From NCBI GenBank assembly GCA_965228875.1, contig OZ245843.1, positions 2,028,616-2,092,615 on the forward strand: a stretch of DNA of 64,000 nucleotides, written 5' to 3'. This document shows, in pieces, positions 5,066 to 53,004 of the stretch (position 1 is its first letter; every line of letters starts with the position of its first letter). The position numbers and the translations under genes are program-made. This stretch comes from Thalassobaculaceae bacterium (GTDB lineage Bacteria > Pseudomonadota > Alphaproteobacteria > Thalassobaculales > Thalassobaculaceae). A model generated the notes under the pieces. The model saw nothing but the letters and a program-made list of their open reading frames with translations. It did not search any database and was not told the origin of the DNA.

Positions 5066-5116
5066 CGGCCTGCCGGATCGATCCCCCAAAGGGTTGATCT
5101 TGTGGCGCGAGACATT

Positions 5117-5206
5117 CGCGAAATCGGCGGGCGCGAAATCGGCGGGCGCGAAATCGGCGGGCGCGAAATCGGCGGGCGCGAAATCGGCGGGCGCGAAATC
5201 GGCGGG
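5117..5206. repeat. Perfect tandem repeat, 6 x 15 bp (CGCGAAATCGGCGGG)
   Basis: Six identical contiguous units read directly in the purS-kinase intergenic region. Confidence 0.97.
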
Positions 5207-5250
5207 CGGGCCGACCGGGATCTGCGATATGCTTCCTCGGGCCACCTCGG

Positions 5251-27317: not shown

Positions 27318-27385
27318 CGGATTGCCCCCTCGCCCGCGCCATGGTGCAGTCGCCAGTCAATGACGCACGGGCTGGAGGCGCCGCC

Positions 27386-28330: not shown

Positions 28331-29334
28331 AGTCCAGCTCTCTTAGCGACCTTACGGACTGATGCCACGGCAGCCGGAGCACAGAAGCCACCTTACTCAC
28401 CGATCGAAGAATGTTTTCAACATCAAAACCTGTTACTCTAAGTCGAAAACAGAACTTCCCAGAAGCAGAGAAGACGGTGCGGCGCGAGTATATTTAGATG
28501 GATCAGGCAGAGTCAAGAGTCAGAGACTACCTAGAGCATATTGGTATTACTGACATCAAATATGAACCAGATGGCAATGTTCCGCCGGATTTTTTGATCG
28601 AAGGACAAATTGCTGTTGAAGTTAGGCGCCTCAATCAAAATACGAAACCTATCAACGGGCGGTTCGAAGGCCTGGAACAAGATTTTCAACGAATATCAGG
28701 CAGAATTGAAAAAATTGCTTCACGAATAAATCCAAGAATCAATAACGAGAGTTGGTTTCTAATTATCGAATTTAAGCGGCCTATCGAAGAGTGGAAATTA
28801 GTTAAAAATGAAATAAGAAAGAAACTTAAGAATTTCTCAGAATCACCAGATCGAAAAGACGATAGCATCATATCAGTCCCATCAATCAAAATAGAACTAA
28901 TAAGAGCATCTTGGGTTTATGAGAAATTTTTTGTGATGGGCGGAATTATAGATTTTGACTCTGGCGGCTGGGTGGTGTCGGAGATGAAACGAAACATAGA
29001 TATTTGTATGAGAGACAAAGAGCAAAAAATAAAGGGATATTATCATAATTATCCCAATTGGTGGCTTATTCTCATCGATCAAATTTCTAATGGATTATCT
29101 AAGCATGAACAGAATGAACTTCGACACTATTGTAATAAAGAAACAGTTTTCGATAAAATTATCATCGTAACTTCGAGCGGATCGCTTTCTGGGTTTGTTC
29201 TTTAACAAATCAATTCTGCACTACATCATCGAAAATAAATACCAAAATTTATCGGCAAATCTAAGAGCTTCCATTTTATGATCGAGATAGACAACCTTGC
29301 CCCAGCATTTTGAACTCTCGGATGAACAGAACAA
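28331..29334. other. AT-rich islet, probably horizontally acquired
   Basis: Abrupt drop in GC between two convergent GC-rich genes; many AAA/ATA/TTA/AGA codons. Confidence 0.85.
28498..29205 (+). CDS. Hypothetical protein, possible PD-(D/E)xK-fold nuclease
   Basis: 235-aa ORF filling the AT-rich islet; E...PPDFLIEGQIAVEVRRL motif. Confidence 0.7.
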   Translation: MDQAESRVRDYLEHIGITDIKYEPDGNVPPDFLIEGQIAVEVRRLNQNTKPINGRFEGLEQDFQRISGRIEKIASRINPRINNESWFLIIEFKRPIEEWKLVKNEIRKKLKNFSESPDRKDDSIISVPSIKIELIRASWVYEKFFVMGGIIDFDSGGWVVSEMKRNIDICMRDKEQKIKGYYHNYPNWWLILIDQISNGLSKHEQNELRHYCNKETVFDKIIIVTSSGSLSGFVL

Positions 29335-30126
29335 CTAGGCTGCACTCTGTCGCGCCAAGTCCGCCGCCAGGGCGGCCGCGATCTCCTGCAAGGGTGCAGC
29401 CAGTGCCGCCGCCGCGTCGTCCGCGCTCAGGGCCGAGCGCAGGTACAACACGTTGATGCAGGCGAAGATCGTCTCGCCGTCGCGGATCGGCACGCCGATG
29501 CTGCTGATCCGGTTCTCGTATTCCCGCGCCATGTAGGCGGGATCCATCGTCGCATAGCCGGCGGCGCGGATCCCGGCGAACAGGTCCCGCGCGAGGCCCC
29601 GGTCGCGGGCGATCGCGTTCCAGGGAGCCGGGTCGGCGGCCACACCGTCGAGGATCGCCGCCCGCTCAGCGGGACCGCAGAACGCCGCATAGGCGAGGCC
29701 CAGCGACGTGGCCAGCATCGGCGCCCGGTATCCGGGCCCGCGGTTGACGAAGATCGGCCCGGCCTCGCGCGAGGTCTCGACCACGATCATCGCGTCGCCG
29801 TCGCGGATCGCCACGTCCGAGGGCCAGCCGATCCGCCGGCGGAAGTCGCCGAGCCTGGGTGCCACGGCGGCGCCCACCGCGCTGTGCGCCCGGTAGCCGG
29901 CGCTGAGTTGCAGGGTCTTGCCCGCGGCGTGGTACAGCCGGGTGTCGTCGTCGCGCACCACATATCCCGCGTGCGCCAGGGTCTCCAGCATCCGCAGGAT
30001 CGTTGCCTTGTCGAGCCCGACCAGCCGGTGAATCTCCGCCAGGCTGGCGCGTCCGGCGAGGCGGTTGACCGCCGCCAGCACATCCAGACACCGAAGCACC
30101 GAAGTCACCGGGCGGTATGACGCCAC
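29335..30126 (-). CDS. IclR family regulator (MhpR-like)
   Basis: YRPVTSVLRCLDVL...GLDKATILRMLETL HTH, IGWPSD, TSLGLAY. Confidence 0.9.
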   Translation of the reverse strand: MASYRPVTSVLRCLDVLAAVNRLAGRASLAEIHRLVGLDKATILRMLETLAHAGYVVRDDDTRLYHAAGKTLQLSAGYRAHSAVGAAVAPRLGDFRRRIGWPSDVAIRDGDAMIVVETSREAGPIFVNRGPGYRAPMLATSLGLAYAAFCGPAERAAILDGVAADPAPWNAIARDRGLARDLFAGIRAAGYATMDPAYMAREYENRISSIGVPIRDGETIFACINVLYLRSALSADDAAAALAAPLQEIAAALAADLARQSAA

Positions 30127-39361: not shown

Positions 39362-40801
39362 ATGCTGCGGGCGATAGCACTGTTGGGCGCGGCTCTCGCT
39401 AACGGTCTCGTCGCCTGTCTCGTCCTCGGCCCGTCCATCGGTCCGGCCAACGCACTGGACGCCTCCAGGTTCGACCCGCCGCCCGGGACCTCCACACCGC
39501 CCGGGACTTCCACACCGACCGGGACCGGCGCGCCGCTGCCGTCCCCCCTTCCCGCCCGCGCGCCCGCCCCCTCGCCGGAGGCCGACCCGACCGGTGTGGA
39601 GAACCGCGACGCGATCGCCGTGGTGATCGGCAACCGGCGCTACGCCCACGGTCTGCCGGAGGTCCGCTACGCCGAAAACGATGCCCGGGAGGTCCGGCGG
39701 TTGCTGGAGACGGTACTGGGCTACCGGGACGGCAACATCATCGACCTGCGCAACGCCTCCCAGGCGGAAATGCTGTCGGTCTTCGGCAATGCCGCCGATC
39801 ATCGCGGCAAGCTCTGGTCGTTCGTGCGACCCGGCGTCTCCGACGTGTTCGTCTACTACTCGGGCCATGGCGTGCCCGGGCTGCGCGACCGACGCGGCTA
39901 TCTGCTGCCGGTCGACGCCGACCCGGCGACACCGGAGATCAACGGCCTGTCCGTCGACCTTCTGCTTGGCAACCTCGCCAAGCTGGAGACCCGGTCGACG
40001 GTGGTCATGATCGAAGCCTGTTTCTCCGGCAACTCCGCAGCGGGCTGGCTGATCGGCTCGGCGTCGCCGGTCTTCGTGCGGCGGGCGCCGGCCGTCCGAC
40101 CCGAAGGCATCACGGTGATCTCCGCCGCTCGCGGCGATCAGGTCGCAAGCTGGGACGAGGAGGCGCGGCTCGGCCTGTTCACCCGCCATGCCATGGACGC
40201 GCTGCTGCGCGGCTTCGCCGATACCGGGGCGGCCGGCAACGGCGACGGTGCCGTCACGCTCGGCGAACTGGAGGCGTATCTCGATTCCGAGATGTCCTAT
40301 GCCGCGCGCCGACGGTTCCGCCGCGCCCAGCAGGCCAGCGTCCAGGGCGATCCGAAGACGGTGCTGGTGCCGGCGGTGCGTCGGCCGGCACCCCGTCCCG
40401 CACCCGCCGCGTCCCTGGCGGCCGTCCCGCCCCCGAGGTCTCCACTGCCGACCGTTGCCCGCCCGGCACCGCAGTCGGGCCGGTACCCGCCGCACGGACC
40501 GAAGGTCGCAGACGGTCAGACCTTCGCGCAGCGCCACTGGCCCGAGATCCGGGGTCGGATCCTCGACTACTACCGGCGCCAGGGCGGCTCCTGGGACTAT
40601 CGCGGCGGCAAGGGCGCCTACGAGCAGGGGGAGCGCATCTCGCGCATCGAGTCCTGGCGGGTCTTCGCGGTGGCTCCAGCCCACCTGGACATGGTCGTGA
40701 CCTACCATTGGTTCGGCGGCGGACGCGACGAACGGGCGGAAGCGAACTTCCGGCTGTCGGTCGGCGCCGACGCGCTGTCGGTCGCGAAGATGTGGCGATG
40801 A
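39362..40801 (+). CDS. Exported caspase-family (peptidase C14) protein with an unknown C-terminal domain
   Basis: Signal peptide, AVVIGN.RY, YAENDA, FVYYSGHG (His169), YLLPVD, IEACFSG (Cys220), GLFT. Confidence 0.9.
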   Translation: MLRAIALLGAALANGLVACLVLGPSIGPANALDASRFDPPPGTSTPPGTSTPTGTGAPLPSPLPARAPAPSPEADPTGVENRDAIAVVIGNRRYAHGLPEVRYAENDAREVRRLLETVLGYRDGNIIDLRNASQAEMLSVFGNAADHRGKLWSFVRPGVSDVFVYYSGHGVPGLRDRRGYLLPVDADPATPEINGLSVDLLLGNLAKLETRSTVVMIEACFSGNSAAGWLIGSASPVFVRRAPAVRPEGITVISAARGDQVASWDEEARLGLFTRHAMDALLRGFADTGAAGNGDGAVTLGELEAYLDSEMSYAARRRFRRAQQASVQGDPKTVLVPAVRRPAPRPAPAASLAAVPPPRSPLPTVARPAPQSGRYPPHGPKVADGQTFAQRHWPEIRGRILDYYRRQGGSWDYRGGKGAYEQGERISRIESWRVFAVAPAHLDMVVTYHWFGGGRDERAEANFRLSVGADALSVAKMWR

Positions 40802-42438
40802 TCGCGCCACTCCGTTGGGCCTCGGCTCTCCTCGCCCTGGTCGTGTGGCTCTGCGGCGCGCACCCGCTGCCGGCAGCGGCGGATGACGGCTGGACCCGCG
40901 CGCTGCTGTCATCGGCCGAGCGTCTCTGGAACCCGCTCCCCCCGGGGAGCCGGATCGCCCTGCGGCCCCTCGACCCCGACGACAGCGGCCTGCCTGACGG
41001 CCTGCTGCGCGAGGTCGAGCAGGCGCTGGCAGCGGCTCTGCTGGCGACGGCACCGCCCGGTGGGGCGATCGCGACACGGCGCGATCTGCCGGCGGTCTGG
41101 GAGGAGGTGGAGAGTTTCGCCGACGCACCGACCCGTCGGTTGCTGGCCGACGCGGCGGTCGATGCGGTGGTGGTTCCCGCGATCGGGGAGACGGCGGACG
41201 GGGTCGGGGTGTCCGGAGTTCTGATATCGGTCGGCGAGGGCGACGCGGGCACGGTGCTGGCGACCCTGCCGGGGGTGGCGCTGCCGGTGGATGTCGGCCG
41301 TTTCGATCTTGCCGACGCGGCCGCCGCAGCTCGGCGCCTCGGCGTGGCGCTTGCCGAGGGTCTGCGCCTGTCTTCCGACCCGGTCGCCCAGTTCGCGGTC
41401 CGGATCGAGCGCCACGGGCCGCGCAGCGACCTGACCGACTGGTTCGGCGCCATGGTCGAAGGCTGGCTGTCCCGCCGCCTGGCGGAGCCCCCACGATACA
41501 TCGCGCGTTCCTTGCGGGACCTGGGCGCGCCGCCGGCGGATGCCACCGTCCGCCTTGAGATGGAGGCCTGGGACCAACGGGAGGGGCGGGTCGACGTCCA
41601 GGCGCGAGCCGCCATGGATGGCGCCAGGGCGGCGGCGACGGTGCGGGTCGCGGCCGCCTCGATCCCGGCGGCCTTCCGGCCCCTGACCCGTGACGGTGGG
41701 CGGATCGGACGCGGCCTGTTCGCCGCTGCCGCAACCTACGTTCCCGACCGCCGGACCGATCCCGTGGAAGCCGGGTTCGCCGCGCGGGTTCTGGCGCGCG
41801 CCGCCGTGATCGACGACCGCCTGCGGCAGGGCGATGGGCCGCACAGGGGCGTCGGCCAGGACGCCGTGGCGCGGGCCATGCGAGGGCTCGAGCGGGCGAT
41901 CCCCCACGAGGAGATCTGGCGGAACCTGCCGGCCGACAGCGGGACGGTCGCACGCGCGGTCCGCGCCCGGGTGGCGGCCGTGGGTGGGGCCGACGCCCCG
42001 CGCCTCGAGGCGGCCGTCGACCGCGCCCTTCACCGCGACGGGGAGCCGTTGCGCGCCCGGCTCACGGTCCGCGGCGGCCGGGCCTTCGTCGCGGCCTATG
42101 CCTGGCAGGCCGATGATACGGTGGTTCGGATCGCCCCCACCGGCCTCCAGGCCCGGCCGGTCGAACCGGAACGCCGGCTTTCCATCCCCTTCCCCGGCGA
42201 GGCCGAGGTCGCCGCGGCGGCGATGCCGGGCTCGCTGGAGACGATGGAGGCGGTGATCGTGGTCGCGTCGGCCATGCCGTTCGCCGCCGATGCGCTGGCG
42301 CCGGCCGCGGCCGGATCGCCGGACGCGAGCCGCGCGGCAGCGGTCGCCATGAGCGGATTCCTCGACGCTCTGGCCCGGCTCGACCTGGCGCGGGTCCGGC
42401 TGGCAGTCCTCCCCTACCGGGTCCGTGCGGGCGAGTGA
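40798..42438 (+). CDS. Exported protein with a CsgG/FlgO-like N-terminus and DUF4384-like C-terminus
   Basis: ATGA overlap with the caspase gene; signal peptide ending AAA; RIALRP...ATRRDLPAVWEE; DRALHRDGEPL...AYAWQADDTVVRIAP...EAVIVVAS. Confidence 0.65.
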   Translation: MIAPLRWASALLALVVWLCGAHPLPAAADDGWTRALLSSAERLWNPLPPGSRIALRPLDPDDSGLPDGLLREVEQALAAALLATAPPGGAIATRRDLPAVWEEVESFADAPTRRLLADAAVDAVVVPAIGETADGVGVSGVLISVGEGDAGTVLATLPGVALPVDVGRFDLADAAAAARRLGVALAEGLRLSSDPVAQFAVRIERHGPRSDLTDWFGAMVEGWLSRRLAEPPRYIARSLRDLGAPPADATVRLEMEAWDQREGRVDVQARAAMDGARAAATVRVAAASIPAAFRPLTRDGGRIGRGLFAAAATYVPDRRTDPVEAGFAARVLARAAVIDDRLRQGDGPHRGVGQDAVARAMRGLERAIPHEEIWRNLPADSGTVARAVRARVAAVGGADAPRLEAAVDRALHRDGEPLRARLTVRGGRAFVAAYAWQADDTVVRIAPTGLQARPVEPERRLSIPFPGEAEVAAAAMPGSLETMEAVIVVASAMPFAADALAPAAAGSPDASRAAAVAMSGFLDALARLDLARVRLAVLPYRVRAGE

Positions 42439-42513
42439 CGCGCCGACGATCGCCCGCACCCATCGAACACCACGACGATTGCGTGTGGCCGAGCTCCGAC
42501 GCACACTGTCGGG

Positions 42514-42538
42514 GGAAAACCCGCCCGCGCCTTCCATG
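42514..42538 (+). promoter_or_regulatory. Repeated promoter-like motif, copy 1 (GGAAAA...TTCCATG)
   Basis: GGAAAACCCGCCCGCGCCTTCCATG, 30 bp before ATG 42569. Confidence 0.6.
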
Positions 42539-42568
42539 AACCCGCCGCAACCAATGGAGGGCGCGGTC

Positions 42569-43555
42569 ATGACAAAGGCGGTGACGCGAATGACGGGGCG
42601 GATGATAGCGCTGGCGATCGTCGGCAGTCTGCTGATCTCCTGCGCCTCGGCGGCGACCGGCCTTCGGGCTGGTGAACTGACGCCCGGCCGGGGACTGGAA
42701 GCTGGCCCGCTGACGGTGCTGGTCATGGGAGAGGACGGACACCGTAATCTGGTGCCGCGCGACGACCCCGCCTTTCGCCGCGTCGTCGCCACCCTGCAGG
42801 AACTCCTCGACCGCCGAGGGTTCAGGGTCGTCGACGAGGAGGCGATCGCCGCCGATCTTGCCTGGGACTCGACCGTCGGTCGGGACAAGATCGACGTGCT
42901 CGAAGTCGCTAAGCTCGCCAATGCGAGCGGGCGGGCGTCGAGCCGGGTGCAGGCGGCGGCGCTGTTCCGCATCGAGGGCGCCTATCGCGACCTGCGATAC
43001 GCGACGCGGATCGATCTCCGGCTGTCCGGCGAACTCTACGACGTCCGCAGCAACCGGTTCCTCGGCGCCTTCGAGGTGCCAGCGGAGTCCGTGACCGCCC
43101 CGGGGCGCTGCCTCTCGGCCGCCTGCGCGTCTCACGCGGTCGGCGAGCGCGCAGGCGATCTGGCGGTCGAGTTGGGCGCCGTGCTCGCCCGCAGACTGGC
43201 AGCCCTGGCCCCGCCCGAGGAGACGGTCACGGATGGCGCGCGGACGTTCGAGTCCGTCTATACGGTCACCTTCCGACACCTCTCCACCGAAGACGCCCTG
43301 TCCATTATCGACGTCATGACCGACGGCTTTCCCGGATACCGCAGCCACGATCTTCTGCGAAGCGGTACCGCCCTGAGACGCTACACCTATGCCACGACCG
43401 CCGGCGCGAACGAGATTGAGCGTTGGCTTACCCTGTTGCTGCTCGACATGGGGCTCGACCCGCAGCGCGAGATCCTGCTGGCGGTCCGCGACGGCGACAT
43501 CCGCATCGAGCGGGTTCTGCCGGCCGCTCCGGCGTCTCAGGCGGCCCGTCCCTGA
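42569..43555 (+). CDS. Exported or lipoprotein hypothetical (CsgG/TolB-N-like alpha/beta domain)
   Basis: GGAGG RBS; signal with possible lipobox LISC; LQELLDRRGFRVVDEEAI; LYDVRSNRFLG. Confidence 0.7.
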   Translation: MTKAVTRMTGRMIALAIVGSLLISCASAATGLRAGELTPGRGLEAGPLTVLVMGEDGHRNLVPRDDPAFRRVVATLQELLDRRGFRVVDEEAIAADLAWDSTVGRDKIDVLEVAKLANASGRASSRVQAAALFRIEGAYRDLRYATRIDLRLSGELYDVRSNRFLGAFEVPAESVTAPGRCLSAACASHAVGERAGDLAVELGAVLARRLAALAPPEETVTDGARTFESVYTVTFRHLSTEDALSIIDVMTDGFPGYRSHDLLRSGTALRRYTYATTAGANEIERWLTLLLLDMGLDPQREILLAVRDGDIRIERVLPAAPASQAARP

Positions 43556-43617
43556 AAGAGTTCCGCCCCGGGACACTTCCGGCCCGGGAAAATTCCGGTC
43601 CTCCGGCGATCGATGAC

Positions 43618-43642
43618 GGAAACCGGGCCTCGCCCTTCCATG
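43618..43642 (+). promoter_or_regulatory. Repeated promoter-like motif, copy 2
   Basis: GGAAACCGGGCCTCGCCCTTCCATG, 31 bp before ATG 43674. Confidence 0.6.
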
Positions 43643-43673
43643 ACCGCAGGAAGACGGCAGAAGGGGCAGGGCA

Positions 43674-44084
43674 ATGGACGACGGTGCGACCACGGGAGCG
43701 ATGACGGAGATCGCGCTGGCCTTGGCCATGGCGTTCTTTTGCATCCTCGTTCTGGCCCTGGTGTCCATGGGCAACCCGCACGCCTCGGTCGACCCGGCAC
43801 TCTCCGCCGAGCGCGTTGAGACTGCCGGTCCCGGGACGCCGCCGCGTCCCCTCGAGGACGACGAGCGCCTGATCCTGTTCCACGCCGACCGGTACCTGGC
43901 GCCGGACGGGAGCTCTGTCGACCCGGCTTCGCTTGCCGGCGAACGGGTCGTGCTCGCCGTCGATCCAAACCTGCCGCTCGCCCGGATCCTCGCCGGCAGG
44001 TCGGCAATCCCCGGCAGTCAGGTCCGGATCACGCCTCTCGATTCCGCCTGGATCGATCATCTCGCCGCAGGAGGTCCCCAATGA
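43674..44084 (+). CDS. ExbD/TolR-like single-TM protein
   Basis: MTEIALALAMAFFCILVLAL TM with an acidic residue; C-terminal VVLAVDPNLPLARI resembles the ExbD periplasmic domain. Confidence 0.65.
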   Translation: MDDGATTGAMTEIALALAMAFFCILVLALVSMGNPHASVDPALSAERVETAGPGTPPRPLEDDERLILFHADRYLAPDGSSVDPASLAGERVVLAVDPNLPLARILAGRSAIPGSQVRITPLDSAWIDHLAAGGPQ

Positions 44085-44878
44085 GACTGCCGATGAGACT
44101 CCCGACAAGACTGCCGACATCCACCGTCCTGCCACTCCTGACTGTCCTCGTCCTGACCCTGGCGGTCCCACCGTCGGAGGCCGCCCGCCCGGCGTCGGAG
44201 GGCACCGCGACGCGGTCGGAGGTGCGTCGCATGGTGGTCCAGGAAGCGTTGCGCAGCGACCGGGTCCCACCCTCCCTCGCGCTGGCCGTCGCCGAGGCGG
44301 AATCGGACTTCGTCGCCGACGCGCTCAGCCCGGCCGGCGCACGCGGGGTGATGCAGATCATGCCGGCGACCGCACGCGGCGAGTTCGGTGTCACCGCCGA
44401 CAGGCTCTGGAACCCGCGCCTCAACATCCAGCTCGGCGTGGCTTTCCTGGACCAACTGATCCGGCGCTACGACGGGCGCTGGGACCTGGCCCTGTCCCAC
44501 TACAACGGGGGCTCCCGCGTCGGTATGGGAGCGGCGGCGCGGGTGATCCCGGCAACCCGCCCCTACGTCGACAAGGTGCTCTCGGTGGAACGGCGCTATG
44601 CCCGCGACGACGCCGCCGTGGCGTTGATCGCGGCCGCCCGCGACGCCAATGCCGATCTCGCCGCGCGGGCCGAACGCCAGGAGGCCGTCGCCGGGGTCGA
44701 GAGGCGGACCGACGACCGGGTGGAACGTCGCCGCCACTTCATGACATTGGCCGACGCGGCACTGGACACCGCCCGCGCGCGTCACCGCAGCCGGGGCGAG
44801 AGGCTGGGTGCCTCGGAACTCCTGGACCGCATCGCCGCGCGCAAGGCCCGCTTTCGGGCGCTCCTGAGCGATGGCTGA
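44081..44878 (+). CDS. Lytic transglycosylase (SLT domain) with a helical C-terminal extension
   Basis: Signal peptide, AEAESDF, GARGVMQIMPATA, ALSHYNGG, TRPYVDKV; ATGA overlap. Confidence 0.93.
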   Translation: MRLPMRLPTRLPTSTVLPLLTVLVLTLAVPPSEAARPASEGTATRSEVRRMVVQEALRSDRVPPSLALAVAEAESDFVADALSPAGARGVMQIMPATARGEFGVTADRLWNPRLNIQLGVAFLDQLIRRYDGRWDLALSHYNGGSRVGMGAAARVIPATRPYVDKVLSVERRYARDDAAVALIAAARDANADLAARAERQEAVAGVERRTDDRVERRRHFMTLADAALDTARARHRSRGERLGASELLDRIAARKARFRALLSDG

Positions 44879-44958
44879 CACGGCGAGCAACCGGGACGTG
44901 CAAGATGACGCAACCTAATCTAGAGTTCCGACGCCCGATGGCTGGCCGGGACACGGCG

Positions 44959-46596
44959 ATGGACGGAATCTCGACGGAACGCGCGCTGCTTACCGGTGCG
45001 ATCAGCCCGCAACTGGACGCGGCGTTCCGGACCGTGGCCGATGCCGATCTCGGCGCCGGTCCCAAATACCCGCCGGCGACCGTCCGCGCCCTGGCCCGCA
45101 CGGTGGTGGCCCGCGCCTACGGCAAGCCGATGCTGGAACTCTGCCACCTGCTGCGGGTGGCGGATGCGGTCGGCGGCCGCCACGGGTGGCCGGCCCTGTT
45201 CTTCGGCGTCCAGGTCGCGCGCGGCGCGGCCTTCCGCGCCCAGATCCAGGAAGGCGCCCGACGATGCCCCGCCTTCGGCACGGATTTCACGCTCGGCGCC
45301 GAGAGCGTAACCGTCGTCTATCCCGACGCCCCGTTCTCCATCGGCTACACCCGGATGGGATTTCTGGCCGCGCTGCTGGAACTGATGGTGACCGCCCTCG
45401 GTTTCCGTGCGGTGGACACCGCGATCCGCGCCTGGCTCGACGACCGGTTCGAGAGCGGCAGCGCACCGCCGCACGCCAACGCGCTGTCGCGGATGTTCTA
45501 CGACCATCTCAAGGACCATCTCGCCACCGCGCAGAGTCTGCGGGTGTTCGCGCGCCTGATCGCCTTTCTCGAAGCCGACCGCGGTCGCGGCTTCACCCTG
45601 GACGACCTCGACGACCGGGCGGTGCTCGACTACTGGTGCCGGGCCGCCGAAGCGGACGGCGACGACGCGGCGGAGCTGCGCGGCTTCCGGGCAGTTACCG
45701 AGCGGGTCGGCCAGCTGCGCACGGCCCTGCAGGCCGCGTTCGAGCGCCACGCCGTAGACAGTGCCCGGCCGGTCGGTCCGGACCGCAGCCTTGGCGAGGT
45801 CGATCCGGACACCGTCCTCTCGGCCCTGGAGACCCATGACGCGGAGGCGGACGAGCTGCGCCGACTGGAGGCGGCGCCGGCGACCGCCGTGAAGTTCCTG
45901 ACCGGTCGGGAGGCCGGCGAGCTCGACCTGATCGCGCGCCTCGGCCCGCATGCGGTTCCCCTGGCGCTCTCGGTCCTGCGCTGCGCAACGTTCGGAAGCC
46001 TGCAGTCCCGGCTCAGCCAGGCGCTGCGCCGCCGCGCATCGCAGGAGGAGACCGCCCGGCTGATCGCTCTGGACGGCTGCGAAACCTACGAGCGACGCCT
46101 CGGCGCCTGGCACACCCTGGAAACGCGTCTCGACCGGATGGCGCTGGCCGCGCTGGCGGTGCTGATCGAGGCCGACCGCGCGGAAGCGGCGCTCGAGGTT
46201 CTGGCACGGTTGCCCCAGTCGGACCTGAGCGGCCTGCGGGCGCACCTGCCGAACGTCGAGGCGGGGAACGTGATCGCTCTGCGTCCGGGGGGCACGGCCG
46301 GCATGGTGGCGGCGCTCGCCGACCCGCGTGTCGTGGGCGGCAAGGTCGCCGGCCTGGTCGGCGACGCGCGGCAGGCCCTGCGCGGGTTGGCCCGGTCGGG
46401 CTTCTCGCCCGATGCCCGCAGAACCCCGGCGGTCGTCGACGGTATGGCGGCCGGCGCTCCTCTGGTCCGCCGGTTGCGCGCCCGGCTGGCGGCGGTCCGC
46501 ACCGCCGCGGAGCTGCGCCTGCCGGAGGACGGATTCGAGGCGGACGGGCATCGGTTCTCCACCGGGCTCGACGCCCTCTACGGGAGACGACCGTGA
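44959..46596 (+). CDS. Cytoplasmic hypothetical protein with an internal ECF-sigma-like (region 2/4) segment; alternative starts 44905 or 44938
   Basis: 545-aa coding-like ORF; DDLDDRAVLDYW...GFRAV and LTGRE...LG...LA...GSLQSRLSQALRRR; the sigma call is a by-eye alignment. Confidence 0.55.
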   Translation: MDGISTERALLTGAISPQLDAAFRTVADADLGAGPKYPPATVRALARTVVARAYGKPMLELCHLLRVADAVGGRHGWPALFFGVQVARGAAFRAQIQEGARRCPAFGTDFTLGAESVTVVYPDAPFSIGYTRMGFLAALLELMVTALGFRAVDTAIRAWLDDRFESGSAPPHANALSRMFYDHLKDHLATAQSLRVFARLIAFLEADRGRGFTLDDLDDRAVLDYWCRAAEADGDDAAELRGFRAVTERVGQLRTALQAAFERHAVDSARPVGPDRSLGEVDPDTVLSALETHDAEADELRRLEAAPATAVKFLTGREAGELDLIARLGPHAVPLALSVLRCATFGSLQSRLSQALRRRASQEETARLIALDGCETYERRLGAWHTLETRLDRMALAALAVLIEADRAEAALEVLARLPQSDLSGLRAHLPNVEAGNVIALRPGGTAGMVAALADPRVVGGKVAGLVGDARQALRGLARSGFSPDARRTPAVVDGMAAGAPLVRRLRARLAAVRTAAELRLPEDGFEADGHRFSTGLDALYGRRP

Positions 46597-47144
46597 CCGG
46601 CCGGTGGCAGGATCTCGACGGGACGCAGCGGGCGCTGGTTGCGGCAGTCTTCGCCGCGCTCGACGCCACGGAACAGTTGGACACCGTGCGACCGCGGGAC
46701 GACGACGCGGCACGGCCCCTCGTCTCCCCGTCTCCGTCGCTGATCTGGTCGTCGCTCATGAGCGGCCGGGAGCTGCCCGACGGAGTGCGGAACGATGACG
46801 ACCTGGAGGCGTTGCTCGCCCGGGCGGCCCGGGCGGTCTTCCCGACGGCCGCCGCGGCGGCGACCCCCGGAGCCGGGCTCGACCGACAGGTCGGGGACGT
46901 GCGCCTGCGGACCGTTCCTTCCCGGGCCGACGCCCGGCAGACTTATCTGATCCTCAGCGTCGCGCCGTCCTCCGCGCCGCAACCGCCGATGCCCGCCCGC
47001 CTGATCGTCGTCGCCGACGGCGGATCGCCCGTCGGGATCGATCTGCCCCCGCCGGTCGACGGCACGGTGCAGGTCCTGCTCGCGGATGACGCCGCCATCC
47101 TCGTTGCCTTGACGGCGCCGGACTCCCGCATTTACCTCGTGTGA
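46593..47144 (+). CDS. Cytoplasmic two-domain hypothetical protein with a poly-Ala linker (anti-sigma-like)
   Basis: GTGA overlap; helical N-terminus, FPTAAAAAT linker, beta-rich C-terminus. Confidence 0.55.
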   Translation: MTGRWQDLDGTQRALVAAVFAALDATEQLDTVRPRDDDAARPLVSPSPSLIWSSLMSGRELPDGVRNDDDLEALLARAARAVFPTAAAAATPGAGLDRQVGDVRLRTVPSRADARQTYLILSVAPSSAPQPPMPARLIVVADGGSPVGIDLPPPVDGTVQVLLADDAAILVALTAPDSRIYLV

Positions 47145-47183
47145 GGGTTGAACGGCGCGGGTTGAGCCGATGGATCGGGTTGC

Positions 47184-48377
47184 ATGAGAGGACGGCTTCG
47201 GGTGGTCGTCGCCACCACGGACGGGCCGAGCACGGTCCGGCGGATCACGCCGGAGGACCCGGCGCTGCGCTCCGTCGTCTGTCTCGCGGGCACCGCCGAA
47301 GCCTTACCGATCTCCACCGAATACGACGCCTTCGTGCGACGGCCCACCGGCGTGGTGGAACGGGACACCGGCCATGGGGTCTACCGTGTCGATGTCGACC
47401 GGCCGATCGATTCCGGTCGGAGCTGGCAGCTCGGCCTCTATCTCGCCCATCGCCTGAAAGCGGCGGATCGTCTCGCCGAGGACGACCAGCCGGCGGAGGC
47501 CATCGTCTGGGCCACGGGAACGGTCGACACCGATCTGAACATCGGCCCGGTCGAGCGGGTTGCCGACAAGGCCCGCCGCTCGGTCGACCTGATCCGTTCC
47601 GGGCCGCCAGTGCTGTCGGTCGCCGCTGCCGCCTGCGCCGACTCCCTCCCCGCCGGGAGCGAGGCCCTGGCCGCGGACCGGATGGAGACGGTGTTGCACC
47701 GTCTGCACCTGACGCCCCCAGCGACCGGCGCGCAAGGCGGCCGCCGGCGTTTGTCGGCAACCGTGCTTCTGGCCATCCTCCTGATCGGCACCGGAGCCGC
47801 GGCCTGGATCGCCCTGCGCCCCCCGGACCCAGCCGGGCCACCCGCCCGCGAGATGCTGCAGGGCGGCACCTCCATAGCCGGCACCGCCGCCGAAGCGCCG
47901 CTACCTTTCGATCCGCGCGACGTGGTCTTCGACGTGCTCGAGTCCCGTCCTCGAGACGGGGTTTGCGCTCCAGGCGCGACGGTCGATCCGGCAATTCCGT
48001 CGCCGCTCGGCGTCTGCGCCGTCGTCTTCCGCGCCCGGAACGCCGGGCGACGGCCGGCGCGGATCCGGCTCTACGGCGCCGTGCAGGGATCCGTGCGTGA
48101 ATACGCGTCCCGCCGCCGGCACAGCGAACTCGTCGACGCCTCACTGGCACCCGGGGAGAGCGCGACGGTGCGGGTGCAGCCGCCCGACTGGGTACGCCGG
48201 GCACTGGTCGTTCGAGGCCTGTTGGTGGTGACGCAGCGCGACAACCTCCAGGTCGACCGGGCCTTGACGTCGATCGACCTGTTGTCGGCGGGCGAACTCG
48301 ACGCCCTGGCCGGCAGCCTGCGCGACCTCGGCGCCGACGTGAGGGAGATTTTCCATCGGGTGACGCCGGCGCGCTGA
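47184..48377 (+). CDS. Membrane-anchored Lon-type (S16-like) protease domain with a C-terminal extracytoplasmic domain
   Basis: DSGRS80W...WAT111G...GPVERVADK129; TM at about residues 190-211; C-terminal Cys pair. Confidence 0.7.
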   Translation: MRGRLRVVVATTDGPSTVRRITPEDPALRSVVCLAGTAEALPISTEYDAFVRRPTGVVERDTGHGVYRVDVDRPIDSGRSWQLGLYLAHRLKAADRLAEDDQPAEAIVWATGTVDTDLNIGPVERVADKARRSVDLIRSGPPVLSVAAAACADSLPAGSEALAADRMETVLHRLHLTPPATGAQGGRRRLSATVLLAILLIGTGAAAWIALRPPDPAGPPAREMLQGGTSIAGTAAEAPLPFDPRDVVFDVLESRPRDGVCAPGATVDPAIPSPLGVCAVVFRARNAGRRPARIRLYGAVQGSVREYASRRRHSELVDASLAPGESATVRVQPPDWVRRALVVRGLLVVTQRDNLQVDRALTSIDLLSAGELDALAGSLRDLGADVREIFHRVTPAR

Positions 48378-48400
48378 AAATCCGCTCTCGCCCGTCCATG
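48375..48400 (+). promoter_or_regulatory. Repeated promoter-like motif, copy 3
   Basis: TGAAAATCCGCTCTCGCCCGTCCATG, 35 bp before ATG 48436. Confidence 0.55.
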
Positions 48401-48435
48401 GCCCGGTGGAGAACGTACCGCCGGAGACCCGAGCC

Positions 48436-48981
48436 ATGGCCCCATCCCCCATTCAGACCACCGTTTCCGCCGCCGCGGCCGCGCTCGGCCTGGCGGTCGC
48501 GCTATCGGCCTGCGTCGCCACCGCACCGCCGGTTGCCGAGGGCATCGGCTACCGTGAGGCGCGCTTCGCCGAGGTCGAAGCCATGCGCGCCTACCGTGCC
48601 TGCCGAGACGAGGGAATGGCGCTCGACCGTCAGGCCCGCGCCGGTGGCGAGGCCGGGCGGTTTCTCGCGGTCGCGCGGGTTCTCGAAGGCTGCGAGGCCG
48701 ATCTCGGGCCGGTGGCCGAGGCGCTGAACGTGGAGGAACGGATGCGGGCCTATGCCGTCGCCGTTCAGAGTCGTCTCAAGGGCGGCGACGTCGCCGCCGC
48801 ACGCCAGGGCCTGGAACGGTTCGACGCGGCCTTCCCCGGCCGCGACCTGTTCTTCGACGACGGGGCCTCGTTCATCGAGACGATGTCGGCCATTCTTGCC
48901 GGCGGGGTGTCGGCGGGTGCCGCCAACATTCCGAGGCCCCTGGCGGAGGATCTCGCCCGCATCGACCGGTGGAGCCGGTGA
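48436..48981 (+). CDS. Helical (TPR-like) lipoprotein
   Basis: GGAG RBS; lipobox LSAC; helical body with a further Cys pair. Confidence 0.75.
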   Translation: MAPSPIQTTVSAAAAALGLAVALSACVATAPPVAEGIGYREARFAEVEAMRAYRACRDEGMALDRQARAGGEAGRFLAVARVLEGCEADLGPVAEALNVEERMRAYAVAVQSRLKGGDVAAARQGLERFDAAFPGRDLFFDDGASFIETMSAILAGGVSAGAANIPRPLAEDLARIDRWSR

Positions 48982-49856
48982 TGCGGGCCCTCCGGTTCGC
49001 GGCGATGGCCACGGCGATCGTCTGCCTCGCCGGGCCGGCAACCGCCGAGGAGGCGCCGGCCCAGGCCCCGGTGTGGGCGCCCGTGGCGAGCGAGCGCCTC
49101 GTCCGCCTCCCGGCCGGCTACCTCGAGAAGGCGGTCGAGCGGGATTTCCGGGACTCGCCGCTGGCGGCGGCGATGGAAGAGCAAGCGAGCGCCCTCGAAG
49201 GAAGCGCCGCCTCCCTTGCCGAGTTGCAGGCAGCCGCGGAGAGCGCACGCGGCCCGATCCGCGACGATCTTCGGCATCAGTTTCTGGTCGCCAAGCAGGA
49301 CTACGTCTCGCTCATGGGCGCGCGTCAGGACCTGGACCGGCAGCGGGTCGATACGCGCCTGCGCCTCTACCGCCGGCTGCTGGCCCGGATCGAGCGTGCC
49401 GGCGACCCCGGCTCGGACCCCGCGCTTGCCGCCCTGGTCGAGCGGCGCACGGCCGCCCTGAAGCGCTTCGAAGGGACGGCGGGGGCGGTCGACATGAAGC
49501 TGTTCGCCGCCTCCGCCGCACAGGAGAGCCGCTATGCGCAGGAGTATCGGCGGCACGCGACGGCGGTCGAGGACCTGGTGCGCGCGATCGACGCCCATCC
49601 CATGAACGCCGCTCCCGTGGTCGACGGCCGCTCGGTCGGCAAGGCCGACTACCTGCGGCACCTGATCGCCGCGGCCGAGACCGACGCGGCGCTGCTCGAT
49701 CAGAAGGACCTTGTGCTCGCCTACATGGCCAAGCTGGTCGCACTCGACGCCATGGCCCTGGCCGACGAGGTCGACGGCGCGCGGGATCCGGAGGACGCCG
49801 GCGGCGACCTTCGGGACGTCACTGCCGCCGTCGAGTTCTTTACCGCTCCCAACTGA
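48981..49856 (+). CDS. Exported coiled-coil hypothetical protein
   Basis: TGATG coupling; signal peptide ending ATA; heptad-rich helical sequence. Confidence 0.75.
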   Translation: MRALRFAAMATAIVCLAGPATAEEAPAQAPVWAPVASERLVRLPAGYLEKAVERDFRDSPLAAAMEEQASALEGSAASLAELQAAAESARGPIRDDLRHQFLVAKQDYVSLMGARQDLDRQRVDTRLRLYRRLLARIERAGDPGSDPALAALVERRTAALKRFEGTAGAVDMKLFAASAAQESRYAQEYRRHATAVEDLVRAIDAHPMNAAPVVDGRSVGKADYLRHLIAAAETDAALLDQKDLVLAYMAKLVALDAMALADEVDGARDPEDAGGDLRDVTAAVEFFTAPN

Positions 49857-49872
49857 TCCGATGGAGGATGCG

Positions 49873-50259
49873 ATGCCGTCGAAGAGAGCCGTCCTGACCG
49901 TGGCCCTGACGCTGGCGATGTTCACGGGGCCGGCGGTCGCCGATCCGCTGGAGAGCATGGAGCGCGAGCGCGCACGGCTGATCACCACGCTGCTGGACCC
50001 GGACCGCGAAGCCCATGCCCGGCTTGCCGAGGCGGATACGATCCGGCGACGCCTGATCGACCTGGAACGCATCGCCCTGCGCGATCCGGCGACCGCGACC
50101 GATACCAGACCGATCGCGCGCCGGGCTTTCGACGATTACGACCTGACCTTCCTGGCCCATGCCTCGGTCGAGCGGGACATGGCGGTGCTCGACCTGTGGC
50201 TCGATCGCCTCGGTCTGTCGACCGGGCGGATCATGGCGGCCCGGGTGGGACGGCGGTGA
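49873..50259 (+). CDS. Exported small helical hypothetical protein
   Basis: GGAGG RBS; signal ending AVA; DPLESMERERARL, RRLIDLERIAL, YDLTFLAHAS. Confidence 0.75.
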   Translation: MPSKRAVLTVALTLAMFTGPAVADPLESMERERARLITTLLDPDREAHARLAEADTIRRRLIDLERIALRDPATATDTRPIARRAFDDYDLTFLAHASVERDMAVLDLWLDRLGLSTGRIMAARVGRR

Positions 50260-50783
50260 TGCGCGCCGCGACCGCGCCCCGCGTCGTTGCCCGGACGCTC
50301 GGCGACGCCTCGAGGGCGCTGGCGCTCCTGCTCGGCGCGGTGAGCGTCGGTCTGGCATCCGCCGCCTGGCTGACAGGCGAACCGGCGGGCGGACTGGCGA
50401 CCCGCGGTGCGACAGTGCTCGGACCGACCTTCATCGCCGGGATCGTCGGTCTCACCCTGCTGGCGCTGCACGCCGCCGTCAGACTGTGGCGCGATCCGCA
50501 CGACGCGCCCTGGCTCGCCGCCGGTCTGCAGGCGGCCTCCGGCATCGCCACACTGGCCCTGACCTTCACCCTGCTCGGCATCGGCCTCGGTATCGCCAGC
50601 CTCTCGGAGGCCCAGATCGGGCCGGACACGGTCAACGCGGTCATCGCCGAACTGACGGCCCGGTTCGCGCTGGCGTTCAGCACGACGGTAATCGGCCTTC
50701 CGCTGGCGGCGGTTCTCCGGGCCGTGCTGCTGGTTCTGGCGGCGCGCGGCGGCCGACAGGGCGGACCGGGAGACGAGCGATGA
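50259..50783 (+). CDS. Compact MotA/TolQ/ExbB-like proton-channel protein
   Basis: TM helices ATLALTFTLLGI and FALAFSTTVIGL resemble ExbB LGLLGTVxGM and ALxTTAxGL. Confidence 0.72.
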   Translation: MRAATAPRVVARTLGDASRALALLLGAVSVGLASAAWLTGEPAGGLATRGATVLGPTFIAGIVGLTLLALHAAVRLWRDPHDAPWLAAGLQAASGIATLALTFTLLGIGLGIASLSEAQIGPDTVNAVIAELTARFALAFSTTVIGLPLAAVLRAVLLVLAARGGRQGGPGDER

Positions 50784-51346
50784 GGTTCCTGCTGTTCAAC
50801 ATCGTCGTCGGTGTCGCGCTGGCCTACCTCCTGGTCATCGACCGCCAAGACCGTGCCGCCGTCGACCCCGGCACCATCGAAAGCCCCACGGCCTCGGTGT
50901 CCGGTCTTCCCTCGGATCCGCTTCCATCGGCCGGACCGCCGGCATCATCGCCGCTCCCACCGGATCCGGCACTGATCGCACCGGCACTGACCGCATCGGC
51001 GCGGCTCGTCCCCGCACGGCTCGTCCCGGACATTCGGGCCGTCCCTGACCTCGAAACGCCGCCACCCGCCGATGCGGGCCCGACCGTATCGGCACCAGCC
51101 GCGACCGTGCGCCCGTCATCGGATCAGGCCCTCGCTGTCCGGGCGACGGGACCCCGCACAGCCGAACACGACCTATCCATCCTTCGGGCTGGCGCCGGCC
51201 GGGACGACGCCAATGTCGATCCCGCCCGGACGGCCATGCCGGCCCGTTCCCGAACCACCACGCCGTCGTCGGCCGCCGCGCGCGGCCGCGACCTGCGGGC
51301 GCTCGCGCGCGACATGGAGAGCCGGTTCCTGACCGGCCTACGCTGA
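50780..51346 (+). CDS. N-terminal TM, Pro-rich linker and short C-terminal helix
   Basis: ATGA overlap; MRFLLFNIVVGVALAYLL; ARGRDLRALARDMESRFL. Confidence 0.7.
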   Translation: MRFLLFNIVVGVALAYLLVIDRQDRAAVDPGTIESPTASVSGLPSDPLPSAGPPASSPLPPDPALIAPALTASARLVPARLVPDIRAVPDLETPPPADAGPTVSAPAATVRPSSDQALAVRATGPRTAEHDLSILRAGAGRDDANVDPARTAMPARSRTTTPSSAAARGRDLRALARDMESRFLTGLR

Positions 51347-52294
51347 ATGCTCGGCCGGCGGTCGTGTCAGCGCCTGGGCGTGGGGGTGCCGCTCGCTCTC
51401 GCTCTGGCGCTCGCCGTGGCGGCCCTGGTCCCGCCGCCGGTCCGGCCGCCCCCGGCCCGGCTGTCGCCCTCGCCGCCGCCGATATCGACCGCGACAACGA
51501 CCCCCATGACCGAGATCGACGGCCTGGCAACCCTCCCGGACGATCGGTCGTCCGAGGTCGCCGTAACGCTAGCCGCCATCCGACTGCCGCCCCCACCGGC
51601 GGTCCCGGGGCCGAAAGACGCGGTCTCCGAGACGTCTAAGCCGGAGAGGTCGAGGTCGGGGGAACCCGGGCATGCGCCGTCGCCTCCAGTTCCTTCTGCC
51701 CCTGCCCCTGCCCCGGCGCCGCTCGACGGGACAGCGGAGACGCCGATAGCGAGCGACCCCGATCCCGCCGATCGACCACCGGTGACAGACTCCTCCCCGC
51801 GCGACCTGGCGGCCGGGGAAGCGGCGCTGCAGGCCATCGAGGCCGGCAGGGGTCCCGGACTCGTGCTGACTTGGCCAACCGATGCCGAATCCCGGCGCCG
51901 TATCGCCGCGTATCTCGCGCGCTGCGCCGGCCTGACGGTCGCGCTGCTGGCCGAGGGCCAGCTGTGGCGCCTGCAGGACCCGGCCGGCCAGGCGTGGCGT
52001 CCCGATCCGCTCGCGGTCTCGACCATCGTGCGACGCGCCGACGGGATCGCACCGGGCCTCGCCAATCGGCTTCGGGGCCGTCACGGCATCGAAGGCGGCA
52101 GCCCGGTCGCCGTGGTCGCGCGCCGCTACGACGCCCGACTGCTCGGCGGCCTGGGCCGGCTGGCGCCGCTGGGCGGGCGGATCCGCGCCGCCTATGCCGT
52201 CCGTGATGGGGCGCTCCTGGTGACGGCGGTGCGGATCGACGACGCAGCAATCGACGGCACGCTGCGCCTGGCCCGGTTGGACCGATGCGGCTGA
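51347..52294 (+). CDS. TonB/TolA-like architecture protein (TM, Pro-rich stalk, globular C-terminal domain)
   Basis: Starts immediately after the previous stop; LALALALAVAALV TM; long Pro/Ala-rich region; about 140-aa C-terminal domain. Confidence 0.6.
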   Translation: MLGRRSCQRLGVGVPLALALALAVAALVPPPVRPPPARLSPSPPPISTATTTPMTEIDGLATLPDDRSSEVAVTLAAIRLPPPPAVPGPKDAVSETSKPERSRSGEPGHAPSPPVPSAPAPAPAPLDGTAETPIASDPDPADRPPVTDSSPRDLAAGEAALQAIEAGRGPGLVLTWPTDAESRRRIAAYLARCAGLTVALLAEGQLWRLQDPAGQAWRPDPLAVSTIVRRADGIAPGLANRLRGRHGIEGGSPVAVVARRYDARLLGGLGRLAPLGGRIRAAYAVRDGALLVTAVRIDDAAIDGTLRLARLDRCG

Positions 52295-53004
52295 AGCCCG
52301 CCGGCCTCTGGCGGCTCGGGCGGGCCGTCGCGCTGACGTGCGGGATCGCGGCCGCGGCCGTGGGTACCGGTTGCGCGCCGCTTCCCGCCGACGGCCTCGT
52401 CGCCGAACCGGTGCCGGCGGAACACCGGCTTTCCGACGCGTTCTGGCGTCGGGCGCCCGCCTGCGTCCTGGTGCTGCCGGCGACGACGGACGCCACCGGC
52501 GGCGCGGTCAGCCCGCGGAGCGCCGAGCGGGCACTGGCGACGCATCTTTCCGGTCGGGTGGCGCGGGTGATCGGCCCGGACCGCAGAACCGCCGAGACCC
52601 GATATCTCGCGATCGACCTGCGCCGTCCGGAGGACCGCGCCCGCTATGCCGGGGTCTCCGGCTGCGGGCACGGCGTCGAGCTATCGGTCGCCGGGGGCCG
52701 ATCCTTCGCCCTCGTCTGGGCCGGCGCGACGCTGTCGCTGGAGGCCAGTCTTGTCGATCTGGCGAGCGGAGTGGTGCTGTGGACCTCAAGACACCGGGTG
52801 TCCCGCGGCGACGGCGGGTTGCCGGTCTCGCCGCTCGGCCTGCTCGTCGCGGTCGGCCGGGCCGGGCGGATTGCAACGGACCGCGACCTGACCGCGTCGG
52901 TGCTGGCCGATGGGCTGCGGGCGCTGACGGCGTCGCTGCCCGACACCCGCACTCACCGCACCTCGAGGAACTCCAGGGTCAGGCCGTTTTCGTCGCGGAA
53001 GTAG
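52285..53004 (+). CDS. DUF799/GNA1162-like lipoprotein
   Basis: Possible lipobox GTGC; PACVLVLP; LVDLASGVVLW; GGLPVSPLG. Confidence 0.65.
   Translation: MRLKPAGLWRLGRAVALTCGIAAAAVGTGCAPLPADGLVAEPVPAEHRLSDAFWRRAPACVLVLPATTDATGGAVSPRSAERALATHLSGRVARVIGPDRRTAETRYLAIDLRRPEDRARYAGVSGCGHGVELSVAGGRSFALVWAGATLSLEASLVDLASGVVLWTSRHRVSRGDGGLPVSPLGLLVAVGRAGRIATDRDLTASVLADGLRALTASLPDTRTHRTSRNSRVRPFSSRK

Follow-up and report, generated by a model that had tools for sequence, protein, structure and literature searches.

A 64-kb window of a single-contig Thalassobaculaceae bacterium genome (4.96 Mb, ca. 70% G+C; contig OZ245843.1 of assembly GCA_965228875.1, positions 2,028,616 to 2,092,615) carries three adjacent genes, called A, B and C throughout, of which the third encodes a membrane protein with a Lon-type domain. 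A preliminary description of this DNA had likened the three to the sigma factor CalpS, the anti-sigma factor CalpT and the Lon-SAVED protease CalpL of type III CRISPR loci, here wired to a periplasmic sensor. Coordinates below are those of the window, that is, of the whole 64-kb stretch analysed. The genes and their principal features are:

44959..46596, + strand: A, soluble and all-helical, 545 aa; from a large family without a name; candidate released regulator
46593..47144, + strand: B, a 183-aa soluble putative adaptor
46848..46862, + strand: codons of B residues 86-90 (AAAAA), with A87-A89 invariant; proposed cleavage site
47184..48377, + strand: C, 397 aa
47184..47723, + strand: C residues 1-180, cytoplasmic Lon-type domain without ATPase
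47421..47423 and 47568..47570, + strand: codons of S80 and K129 of C
47742..47813, + strand: C residues 187-210, single transmembrane helix with RRR on its cytoplasmic side
47901..48377, + strand: C residues 240-397, beta-rich domain on the periplasmic side, C261 and C278 being invariant

The codon-position G+C content fits three plus-strand genes (0.81-0.89 at third and 0.47-0.62 at second positions), and the GTG start of B overlaps the stop of A. The named homologues nearest to the window genes come from Thalassobaculum and related Rhodospirillales. A, B and C belong to a plus-strand gene run (39362-53004) that also encodes a secreted Peptidase_C14 protein, an SLT-type lytic transglycosylase and about ten more proteins that match nothing in Pfam, NCBIfam or PADLOC. 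According to a hydropathy scan, in which the downstream genes g11 and g12 were judged by eye, A and B are the only soluble products of this cluster, all others having an N-terminal signal, a lipobox or a transmembrane segment; the scan found no segment in B, and the one internal helix of A is buried in its confident model. This confirms the earlier observation that the sole cluster genes lacking a signal peptide or transmembrane segment sit directly before C. A, B and C themselves have no match in Pfam or NCBIfam (E ≤ 0.1) or in PADLOC. The surroundings were also described as CRISPR-free, and in agreement with this no CRISPR-like array was found in the 64-kb window, the cas genes elsewhere in the genome not having been searched for.

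AlphaFold modelling of C with 27 relatives produced a structure with a mean predicted local distance difference test score (pLDDT) of 87.5. Used as a Foldseek query, this structure gave 98 PDB matches at E ≤ 1e-3, the best of which were Lon or RadA Lon-like domains aligned over residues 1-180. When the sequence profile of the C family was compared with the PDB, Lon accounted for nine of the 13 weak matches (best E 0.011), and K129 was aligned there with the lysine of the Lon EKL motif, which we take to be the catalytic lysine of Lon. None of 27 close relatives departs from S80 or K129, and S80, W81, G112 and K129 are invariant in all 22 C proteins compared, which include other classes and go down to ca. 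30% identity. The Lon domain is followed by the transmembrane helix, a linker of low confidence in the model and the beta-rich domain; a SAVED domain was not seen in this arrangement, and Pfam gave no domain at all. Since arginine residues precede the membrane helix, the Lon domain is placed in the cytoplasm, and the two invariant cysteines of the beta-rich part are as expected of a periplasmic domain. In many relatives conservation is limited to the first 130-180 residues, the outer part differing between lineages and total length ranging from 362 to 880 aa. The proposed layout of a Lon-type domain, one transmembrane segment and an outer domain is thus borne out by the fold, the conserved Ser-Lys pair and the model, and C is a predicted membrane-anchored Lon-type protease without an ATPase module.

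Two variants were met among the relatives of C. One C homologue (L058:9141-10589) has the motif seen in B, as RVAAAAT, in the cytoplasmic linker that leads up to its membrane helix, and to judge from this motif it might cut itself; the motif was seen neither in the window's C nor in the other C sequences inspected at full length. Five proteins of 480-489 aa (P0043-P0047) show 56-58% identity to C over 44-47% of its length and also contain a Transposase_mut domain (PF00872), perhaps through an insertion within C, perhaps as an artefact of reading frame in DNA of high G+C.

B belongs to no known family, and its comparison with PDB sequence profiles gave no meaningful match. Pfam found nothing in 13 B proteins, including with its anti-sigma domain (ASD) and zf-HC2 models. 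An Atlas search placed B in an unnamed family of its own, with the nearest named cluster (zf-HC2 in 27% of its members) at 0.75, no more than a lead. No fusion or extended version of B turned up in a search for such forms, which is weak evidence. The alignment of the family shows a conserved N-terminal part, an alanine motif, a stretch of variable length and a conserved C-terminal domain of ca. 90 residues (95-183 in B) that ends in Y/F-L-x. Internally, only the triplet A87-A88-A89 is an invariant motif in all 13 B proteins, where it is embedded in P-x-x-A-A-A-[AS]-[TSG]; distant B proteins keep the core A-A-[STG] (for example VAAASS, AQAAS or AIAAST) in all cases examined except one, that of locus L132.

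Modelling of the pairs had been suggested as a check in the preliminary description, and A and B are indeed predicted to bind. The modelled complex reached interaction prediction scores from aligned errors (ipSAE) of 0.87, 0.87 and 0.88, as against 0.00 for the best of three controls; the mark used is reached by 116 of 157 solved complexes and two of 215 mismatched pairs, counts that apply only roughly here because the alignments were our own. At least 93% of contacts are common to the runs, and the partner has a pLDDT of at least 78. Confident contacts of B are confined to residues 2-80, directly before the alanine run, with B predicted to wrap around A, touching its residues 13-51, 74-85, 141-153, 188-215, 248-267, 279-305 and 323-327, while the C-terminal domain of B is left free. 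The modelling therefore supports binding of A by the N-terminal half of B.

The conservation of the gene order was followed in three censuses, which have some genomes in common. Of the 63 genomes of the order, 35 have A and 32 have C; A and C are adjacent and on one strand in 30 of these 32, the other two being fragmented assemblies. Among the loci fetched, A, B and C follow one another in 13 of 15 from the same family, and A and C are in order in all eight from other families or classes (41-72% G+C), each with a B-like open reading frame (ORF) between them. A scan for C with one genome per species gave 44 loci from Thalassobaculaceae, Nisaea, Magnetovibrio, SAR116/Puniceispirillum, Moraxellaceae, Cellvibrionaceae and others, with A just upstream of C in 42 and B between the two in 41 according to hidden Markov model searches, or in 43 when two divergent ORFs recognized by eye are included. 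The three-gene order, whose conservation the preliminary description had left to be checked, thus holds from alpha- to gammaproteobacteria. The A family itself comprises 863 representative clusters when 1.84 billion library proteins are searched at E ≤ 1e-3. Its distribution is patchy: of 401 genomes sampled in the phylum, nine have A, and matches are closer in other classes than in some relatives. The triad is flanked by arginase, envelope and LysR genes, and within the family the cluster keeps one chromosomal place between the arginase and LysR genes. In a locus of a low-G+C relative, Pfam searches with 16 ORFs retrieved only the SLT protein and unrelated neighbours.

One genome (G009, loci L029 and L030) has the full cluster together with a second copy of A, which is accompanied by g05 and SLT genes and lacks B and C, and an orphan C-like Lon domain at 415026-415589.

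A comparison of the upstream regions of relatives revealed a bipartite motif, GAAAAYC-N12-13-[GT]TCCAT[AG]G, before three genes of the cluster, g04, g05 and g10. This motif is new in this analysis, being absent from the preliminary description. The sites and the genes that they precede are:

42515..42539, + strand: promoter-like site 1, GAAAAC-N11-TTCCATGA; 24.0 bits, genome rank 2, 30 nt before the g04 ATG
42569..43555, + strand: g04, a predicted lipoprotein (lipobox LISC) without family match that recurs with the triad in many loci
43618..43643, + strand: promoter-like site 2, GGAAAC-N12-TTCCATGA; 20.2 bits, genome rank 8, 31 nt before the g05 ATG
43674..44084, + strand: g05, 136 aa with an N-terminal transmembrane helix, kept beside the SLT gene and without family match
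44081..44878, + strand: secreted lytic transglycosylase (SLT; Pfam PF01464, E 2.4e-22)
48376..48401, + strand: promoter-like site 3, GAAAAT-N12-GTCCATGG; 27.6 bits, genome rank 1, 35 nt before the g10 ATG at 48436
48436..53004, + strand: g10-g15, six products that are lipoproteins, secreted or transmembrane proteins, none with a family match; putative third operon

The scoring matrix was made from 12 sites of other genomes only, and the ranks refer to both strands of the whole 4.96 Mb. Site 3 overlaps the stop codon of C. A Shine-Dalgarno-like sequence stands before each of the three likely ATG codons; that of g04, whose true start is probably the ATG at 42569, is GGAGG, 8 nt upstream. The motif is found before the same genes in L022, L024 and L034, with the counterpart of site 2 upstream of their g05 homologues. 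In L028, a locus with only A, B and C, it stands directly before A, and in L063 and L064, from a second family, before g04 or the caspase gene. In loci of other classes, inspection by eye showed the same A-rich first half with the second-half variants TTCGTACTC, TTACCTAC, TTCATATTC and TCCTTAG before g05 and g10. Across the 44 C-anchored loci, at least three of which (L102, L103 and L117) come from genomes that gave sites to the matrix, a threshold of 17.4 bits yielded 36 matches on the gene strand versus one on the opposite strand, with at least one match in 25 loci. Most matches lie ca. 3.5 kb upstream of C or right after its stop.

The ECF (extracytoplasmic function) sigma factors recognize promoters of the consensus AAC-N14-15-C(A/G)TA, and the cluster motif, asymmetric and with fixed spacing, has the form of a putative promoter of this type. 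A cluster-specific motif of this kind needs a dedicated factor. None of the nine Sigma70_r4_2 genes of the genome has one of the top 29 motif matches within 4 kb. The motif accompanies the cluster from class to class, and no soluble proteins other than A and B are conserved; the best candidate for the reader of the motif is therefore a factor encoded in the cluster, most simply A. Site 2 would head a putative operon g05-SLT-A-B-C, so that the triad would be autoregulated; in L058 the stop of the SLT gene overlaps the start of A.

The motif could also be taken for a sigma-32 heat-shock promoter of the ordinary kind, whose consensus is similar in geometry; this was rejected because the best sites genome-wide are those of the cluster itself. 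Inclusion of the caspase operon in the regulon was dropped, no site of at least 14 bits being found before it in the window.

Two other elements were seen in these upstream regions. Just upstream of site 2 (43561-43598), a partly palindromic 16-bp unit, TTCCGGCCCGGGAAAA, is repeated 2.4 times and could be an operator for a second regulator. A second upstream element, GATGGTTGA...N...ATGCGTGC, differs from GAAAAYC...TCCATRG; it stands before A in L021, L034 and L035, and before the caspase gene in L021 and L034. L021 and L035 have no g05 or SLT genes.

Taken together, these features suggest that A, B and C form a proteolytic switch resembling CalpL-CalpT-CalpS that is wired to a periplasmic sensor and controls a self-contained envelope regulon, a reading to which we assign a probability of about 0.5. 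What was computed is the Lon fold with its conserved dyad, the gene order, the alanine motif, the predicted A-B interface and the promoter motif; from these we infer cleavage, a degron step, a signal and a role of A as reader of the promoters, either as a divergent sigma-like factor or as an activator. In the resting state, residues 2-80 of B would hold A, and the C-terminal domain of B would probably be docked on the cytoplasmic Lon domain of C. A periplasmic cue read by the variable outer domain of C would then turn on the ATPase-less Ser80-Lys129 protease, which would cut B in its invariant alanine run, just past the part that binds A. The new C-terminus, ending in -AA, would act as a degron and deliver the B fragment to ClpXP (ClpX is present in the genome). 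Freed A would switch on the three promoters, before g04, before g05-SLT-A-B-C, where the response would amplify itself, and before g10-g15. A is probably the cluster's own transcription factor; by the criteria normally applied, it does not qualify as a sigma factor. The logic first proposed by analogy with CalpL is partly supported, namely by the Lon fold and conserved dyad, the gene order, the alanine motif, the predicted A-B binding and the promoter motif; the sigma identity of A is not supported.

The closest precedent is the CalpL system of Ca. Cloacimonas. As described in the preprint (bioRxiv 10.1101/2024.05.08.593097), CalpL cuts CalpT within LAAA, between A204 and A205, the LAA end of cut CalpT is a degron, degradation of the fragment frees the sigma factor, and the C-terminal CalpT fragment docks on CalpL. 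The triad shares with this system a predicted Lon-type Ser-Lys protease without ATPase and a division into three components, namely the protease, a small adaptor made of two parts and a partner whose release is proposed here. B resembles CalpT in placing an alanine-rich motif between a partner-binding N-terminal part and a C-terminal domain of ca. 10 kDa, and by analogy it would likely follow the same -AA degron logic. The differences are that the sensor of C is a transmembrane helix with a periplasmic domain rather than SAVED, that the triad has no CRISPR context in the window, that neither B nor A has a detectable sequence relation to CalpT or CalpS, that A is three times the size of an ECF sigma factor and that the putative output promoters drive envelope genes. 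CalpL is not among the best 50 structure matches listed for C, the closeness of the two Lon domains not having been measured.

The second comparison is with the sigma-E type of envelope response. There, an envelope signal leads to the anti-sigma factor RseA being cut by DegS and RseP, the resulting -AA end is taken to ClpXP, and the operon is autoregulated. The switch proposed here has in common with it the path from an envelope signal to cleavage of a holding protein, the transfer of an -AA end to ClpXP and autoregulation from an ECF-like promoter. It differs in that the membrane protein C is itself the protease, with its active site in the cytoplasm, and is of the Lon type instead of a PDZ serine protease such as DegS or a site-2 metalloprotease such as RseP, and in that the holding protein B is soluble. 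From Lon and RadA/ComM, C is set apart by the lack of an AAA+ module, by an identity of 9-17%, by the missing Pfam Lon_C match and by the position of its Lon-like domain at the N-terminus of a single-pass membrane protein. The likeness to ECF sigma systems consists of the promoter geometry and a weak colinear profile match of A; unlike ECF sigma factors, A has no Sigma70_r2/r4 match, no sigma factor in the fold searches and large additional N- and C-terminal domains. Lacking a SAVED domain, a CRISPR context and any recognisable domain of a sigma or anti-sigma factor, and having a protease of the Lon type, the triad falls outside both the CalpL-CalpT-CalpS and the RseA types.

Several points weigh against the reading proposed above, most of them concerning A. 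Its model (pLDDT 85.6, predicted template modelling score 0.74) is nearly all helical and gave no Foldseek match at E ≤ 1e-3. No sigma chain is among the structure matches listed for A by Foldseek, by a wide VIA search and by a second VIA look, lists that cover mainly residues 296-533 and in which single domains of the 545-residue model can be missed. A has no sequence match in Pfam, NCBIfam or the PDB, 75 members of its family gave no sigma model (Sigma70_r2/r4) at E ≤ 0.1 and no Pfam family more than once, and the Atlas search for A returned nothing at 0.9 or above. Where the helix-turn-helix of sigma region 4 would sit, the model has a single long helix, 336-357. With default settings, hhalign gave A a probability of 0.46% against six ECF sigma factors of the same genome, and over all runs its ECF probability stayed at 0.46-5%. 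The other points concern the switch and the motif. S80 of C stands directly before model helix 81-93, and a residue-level alignment to the serine of Lon was not obtained; the Pfam Lon_C model does not match C at E ≤ 0.1. The alanine run of B could be structural rather than a cleavage site. In 19 of the 44 C-anchored loci the matrix found no match at threshold, the distant variants being recognized by eye only. Finally, three genomes of one genus have A without B or C, and A can therefore act without the switch.

The profile signal of A was nevertheless reproducible in local hhalign runs. Residues 170-375 scored 23.6 (P 0.008) against the six ECF sigma factors of this genome and 22.7 (P 0.0099) against 34 ECF sigma factors from 30 genomes. 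The controls scored lower: 11.9-13.5 for the N- and C-terminal parts of A, 15.0-17.8 for reversed profiles and 10.3-18.6 for 70 block shuffles. The alignment is colinear over almost the whole ECF profile and above all 70 shuffles, with a probability of only 4-5%, and it places the conserved A segments IDD-x-AVL-x-FW and DFRTF on ECF regions 2.1-2.3. The preliminary description had expected a sigma fold in the 545-aa protein; none appeared in three structure searches or in Pfam, and this weak sequence signal in residues 170-375 is a lead.

A LuxR-like or region-4-like element read by eye in A 312-358 was rejected, as it has no Pfam support and the model shows one helix there. Among the 20 longest A relatives scanned, one of 699 aa (P0122) carries at its N-terminus a CHC2 zinc ribbon of the DnaG type (E 1.5e-35), after which comes the complete A region; either a fusion or a gene-calling artefact would explain it, and such a ribbon hints at DNA-related work of A.

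Three other explanations were weighed. The best surviving of them, which we consider unlikely, keeps the switch and makes A an effector or scaffold, for example an enzyme or an envelope assembly factor, that is freed or activated by cleavage of B, the motif being read by an unlinked host factor. In its favour, neither a DNA-binding nor a sigma domain turned up for A in Pfam or fold searches, and its ECF profile signal is weak. An unlinked reader, however, is difficult to reconcile with a motif that accompanies the cluster from class to class, occurs almost nowhere else in the genome and is carried by no canonical sigma gene; and the cluster has no further conserved soluble protein, the invariant residues of A are mostly Arg, Trp, Phe and Gly and do not make up a catalytic set, and one of its 20 longest relatives bears the DnaG-type DNA-binding zinc ribbon. 

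It is improbable that A and B are a toxin-antitoxin-like or abortive-infection pair, in which C would remove the antitoxin B upon envelope damage or phage attack and growth would be arrested. A toxin should not stand without its antitoxin, as A does in three genomes, PADLOC matches none of the three proteins, the cluster occupies one fixed chromosomal place within the family, and promoter-like sites of its own stand before envelope genes. Features in favour are the patchy spread of A (nine of the 401 genomes sampled), its tight coupling to B, the predicted wrap-around interface, the caspase-like neighbours and the growth arrest that release of CalpS causes in E. coli according to the preprint (bioRxiv 10.1101/2024.05.08.593097).

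That the Lon-like domain of C is not a working protease for B, serving instead as a binding or scaffold module (as in RadA/ComM) or for self-processing only, with A, B and C as parts of an envelope machine, would fit the missing Lon_C match and can hardly be squared with a Ser80-Lys129 pair invariant in 22 of 22 proteins down to ca. 30% identity, with the alignment of K129 to the lysine of the Lon EKL motif and with the exposed CalpT-type alanine motif that B keeps.

A more far-reaching version of the proteolytic switch is somewhat doubtful at present. It would make A the founder of an extremely divergent class of sigma-like proteins of ca. 545 aa with an ECF-like promoter of its own, and B and C a split anti-sigma device without precedent, in which a soluble adaptor is cut in the cytoplasm by a single-pass protein switched from the periplasm; the regulon would be a widespread envelope machine of ca. 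ten proteins that includes lytic transglycosylases. If A does represent such a new class, the finding is much larger. In the literature searched, CalpL appeared only in its CRISPR context and otherwise ordinary ECF work was found; a membrane-bound Lon triad was not found described. These three adjacent genes of marine proteobacteria appear to constitute a new signalling route across the membrane. If this is true, the CalpL-type switch is not a CRISPR speciality; it is a general signalling module that has also been wired to the periplasm. A, B and C represent three unnamed families, and the ca. ten envelope proteins under their proposed control are unnamed as well. The system offers convenient handles, namely two putative catalytic residues, one candidate cleavage site, three putative promoters and one predicted interface.

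The upstream end of the gene run is often found before the triad in other loci as well:

39362..42438, + strand: caspase-like peptidase (Peptidase_C14), secreted, together with a secreted protein of 576 aa

The Peptidase_C14 match of the peptidase has an E-value of 5.8e-15. The protein (39362-40801) has a signal peptide, and the NCBIfam model 'caspase, EACC1-associated type' scores 76.5 bits, under its 140-bit cut-off. In L063 and L064, loci of another family, the triad likewise has a caspase homologue nearby.

Two features of the window lie apart from the cluster. Between 28001 and 30000 the G+C content drops to 0.547 from ca. 0.68 around it, and no ORF with high third-position G+C was called at 27317-29335; this segment may be foreign or RNA-coding DNA. 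The other is a perfect tandem repeat with a unit of 15 bp (5117-5208; 6.1 copies, 100% identity), located at the start of the ORF 5098-7227.

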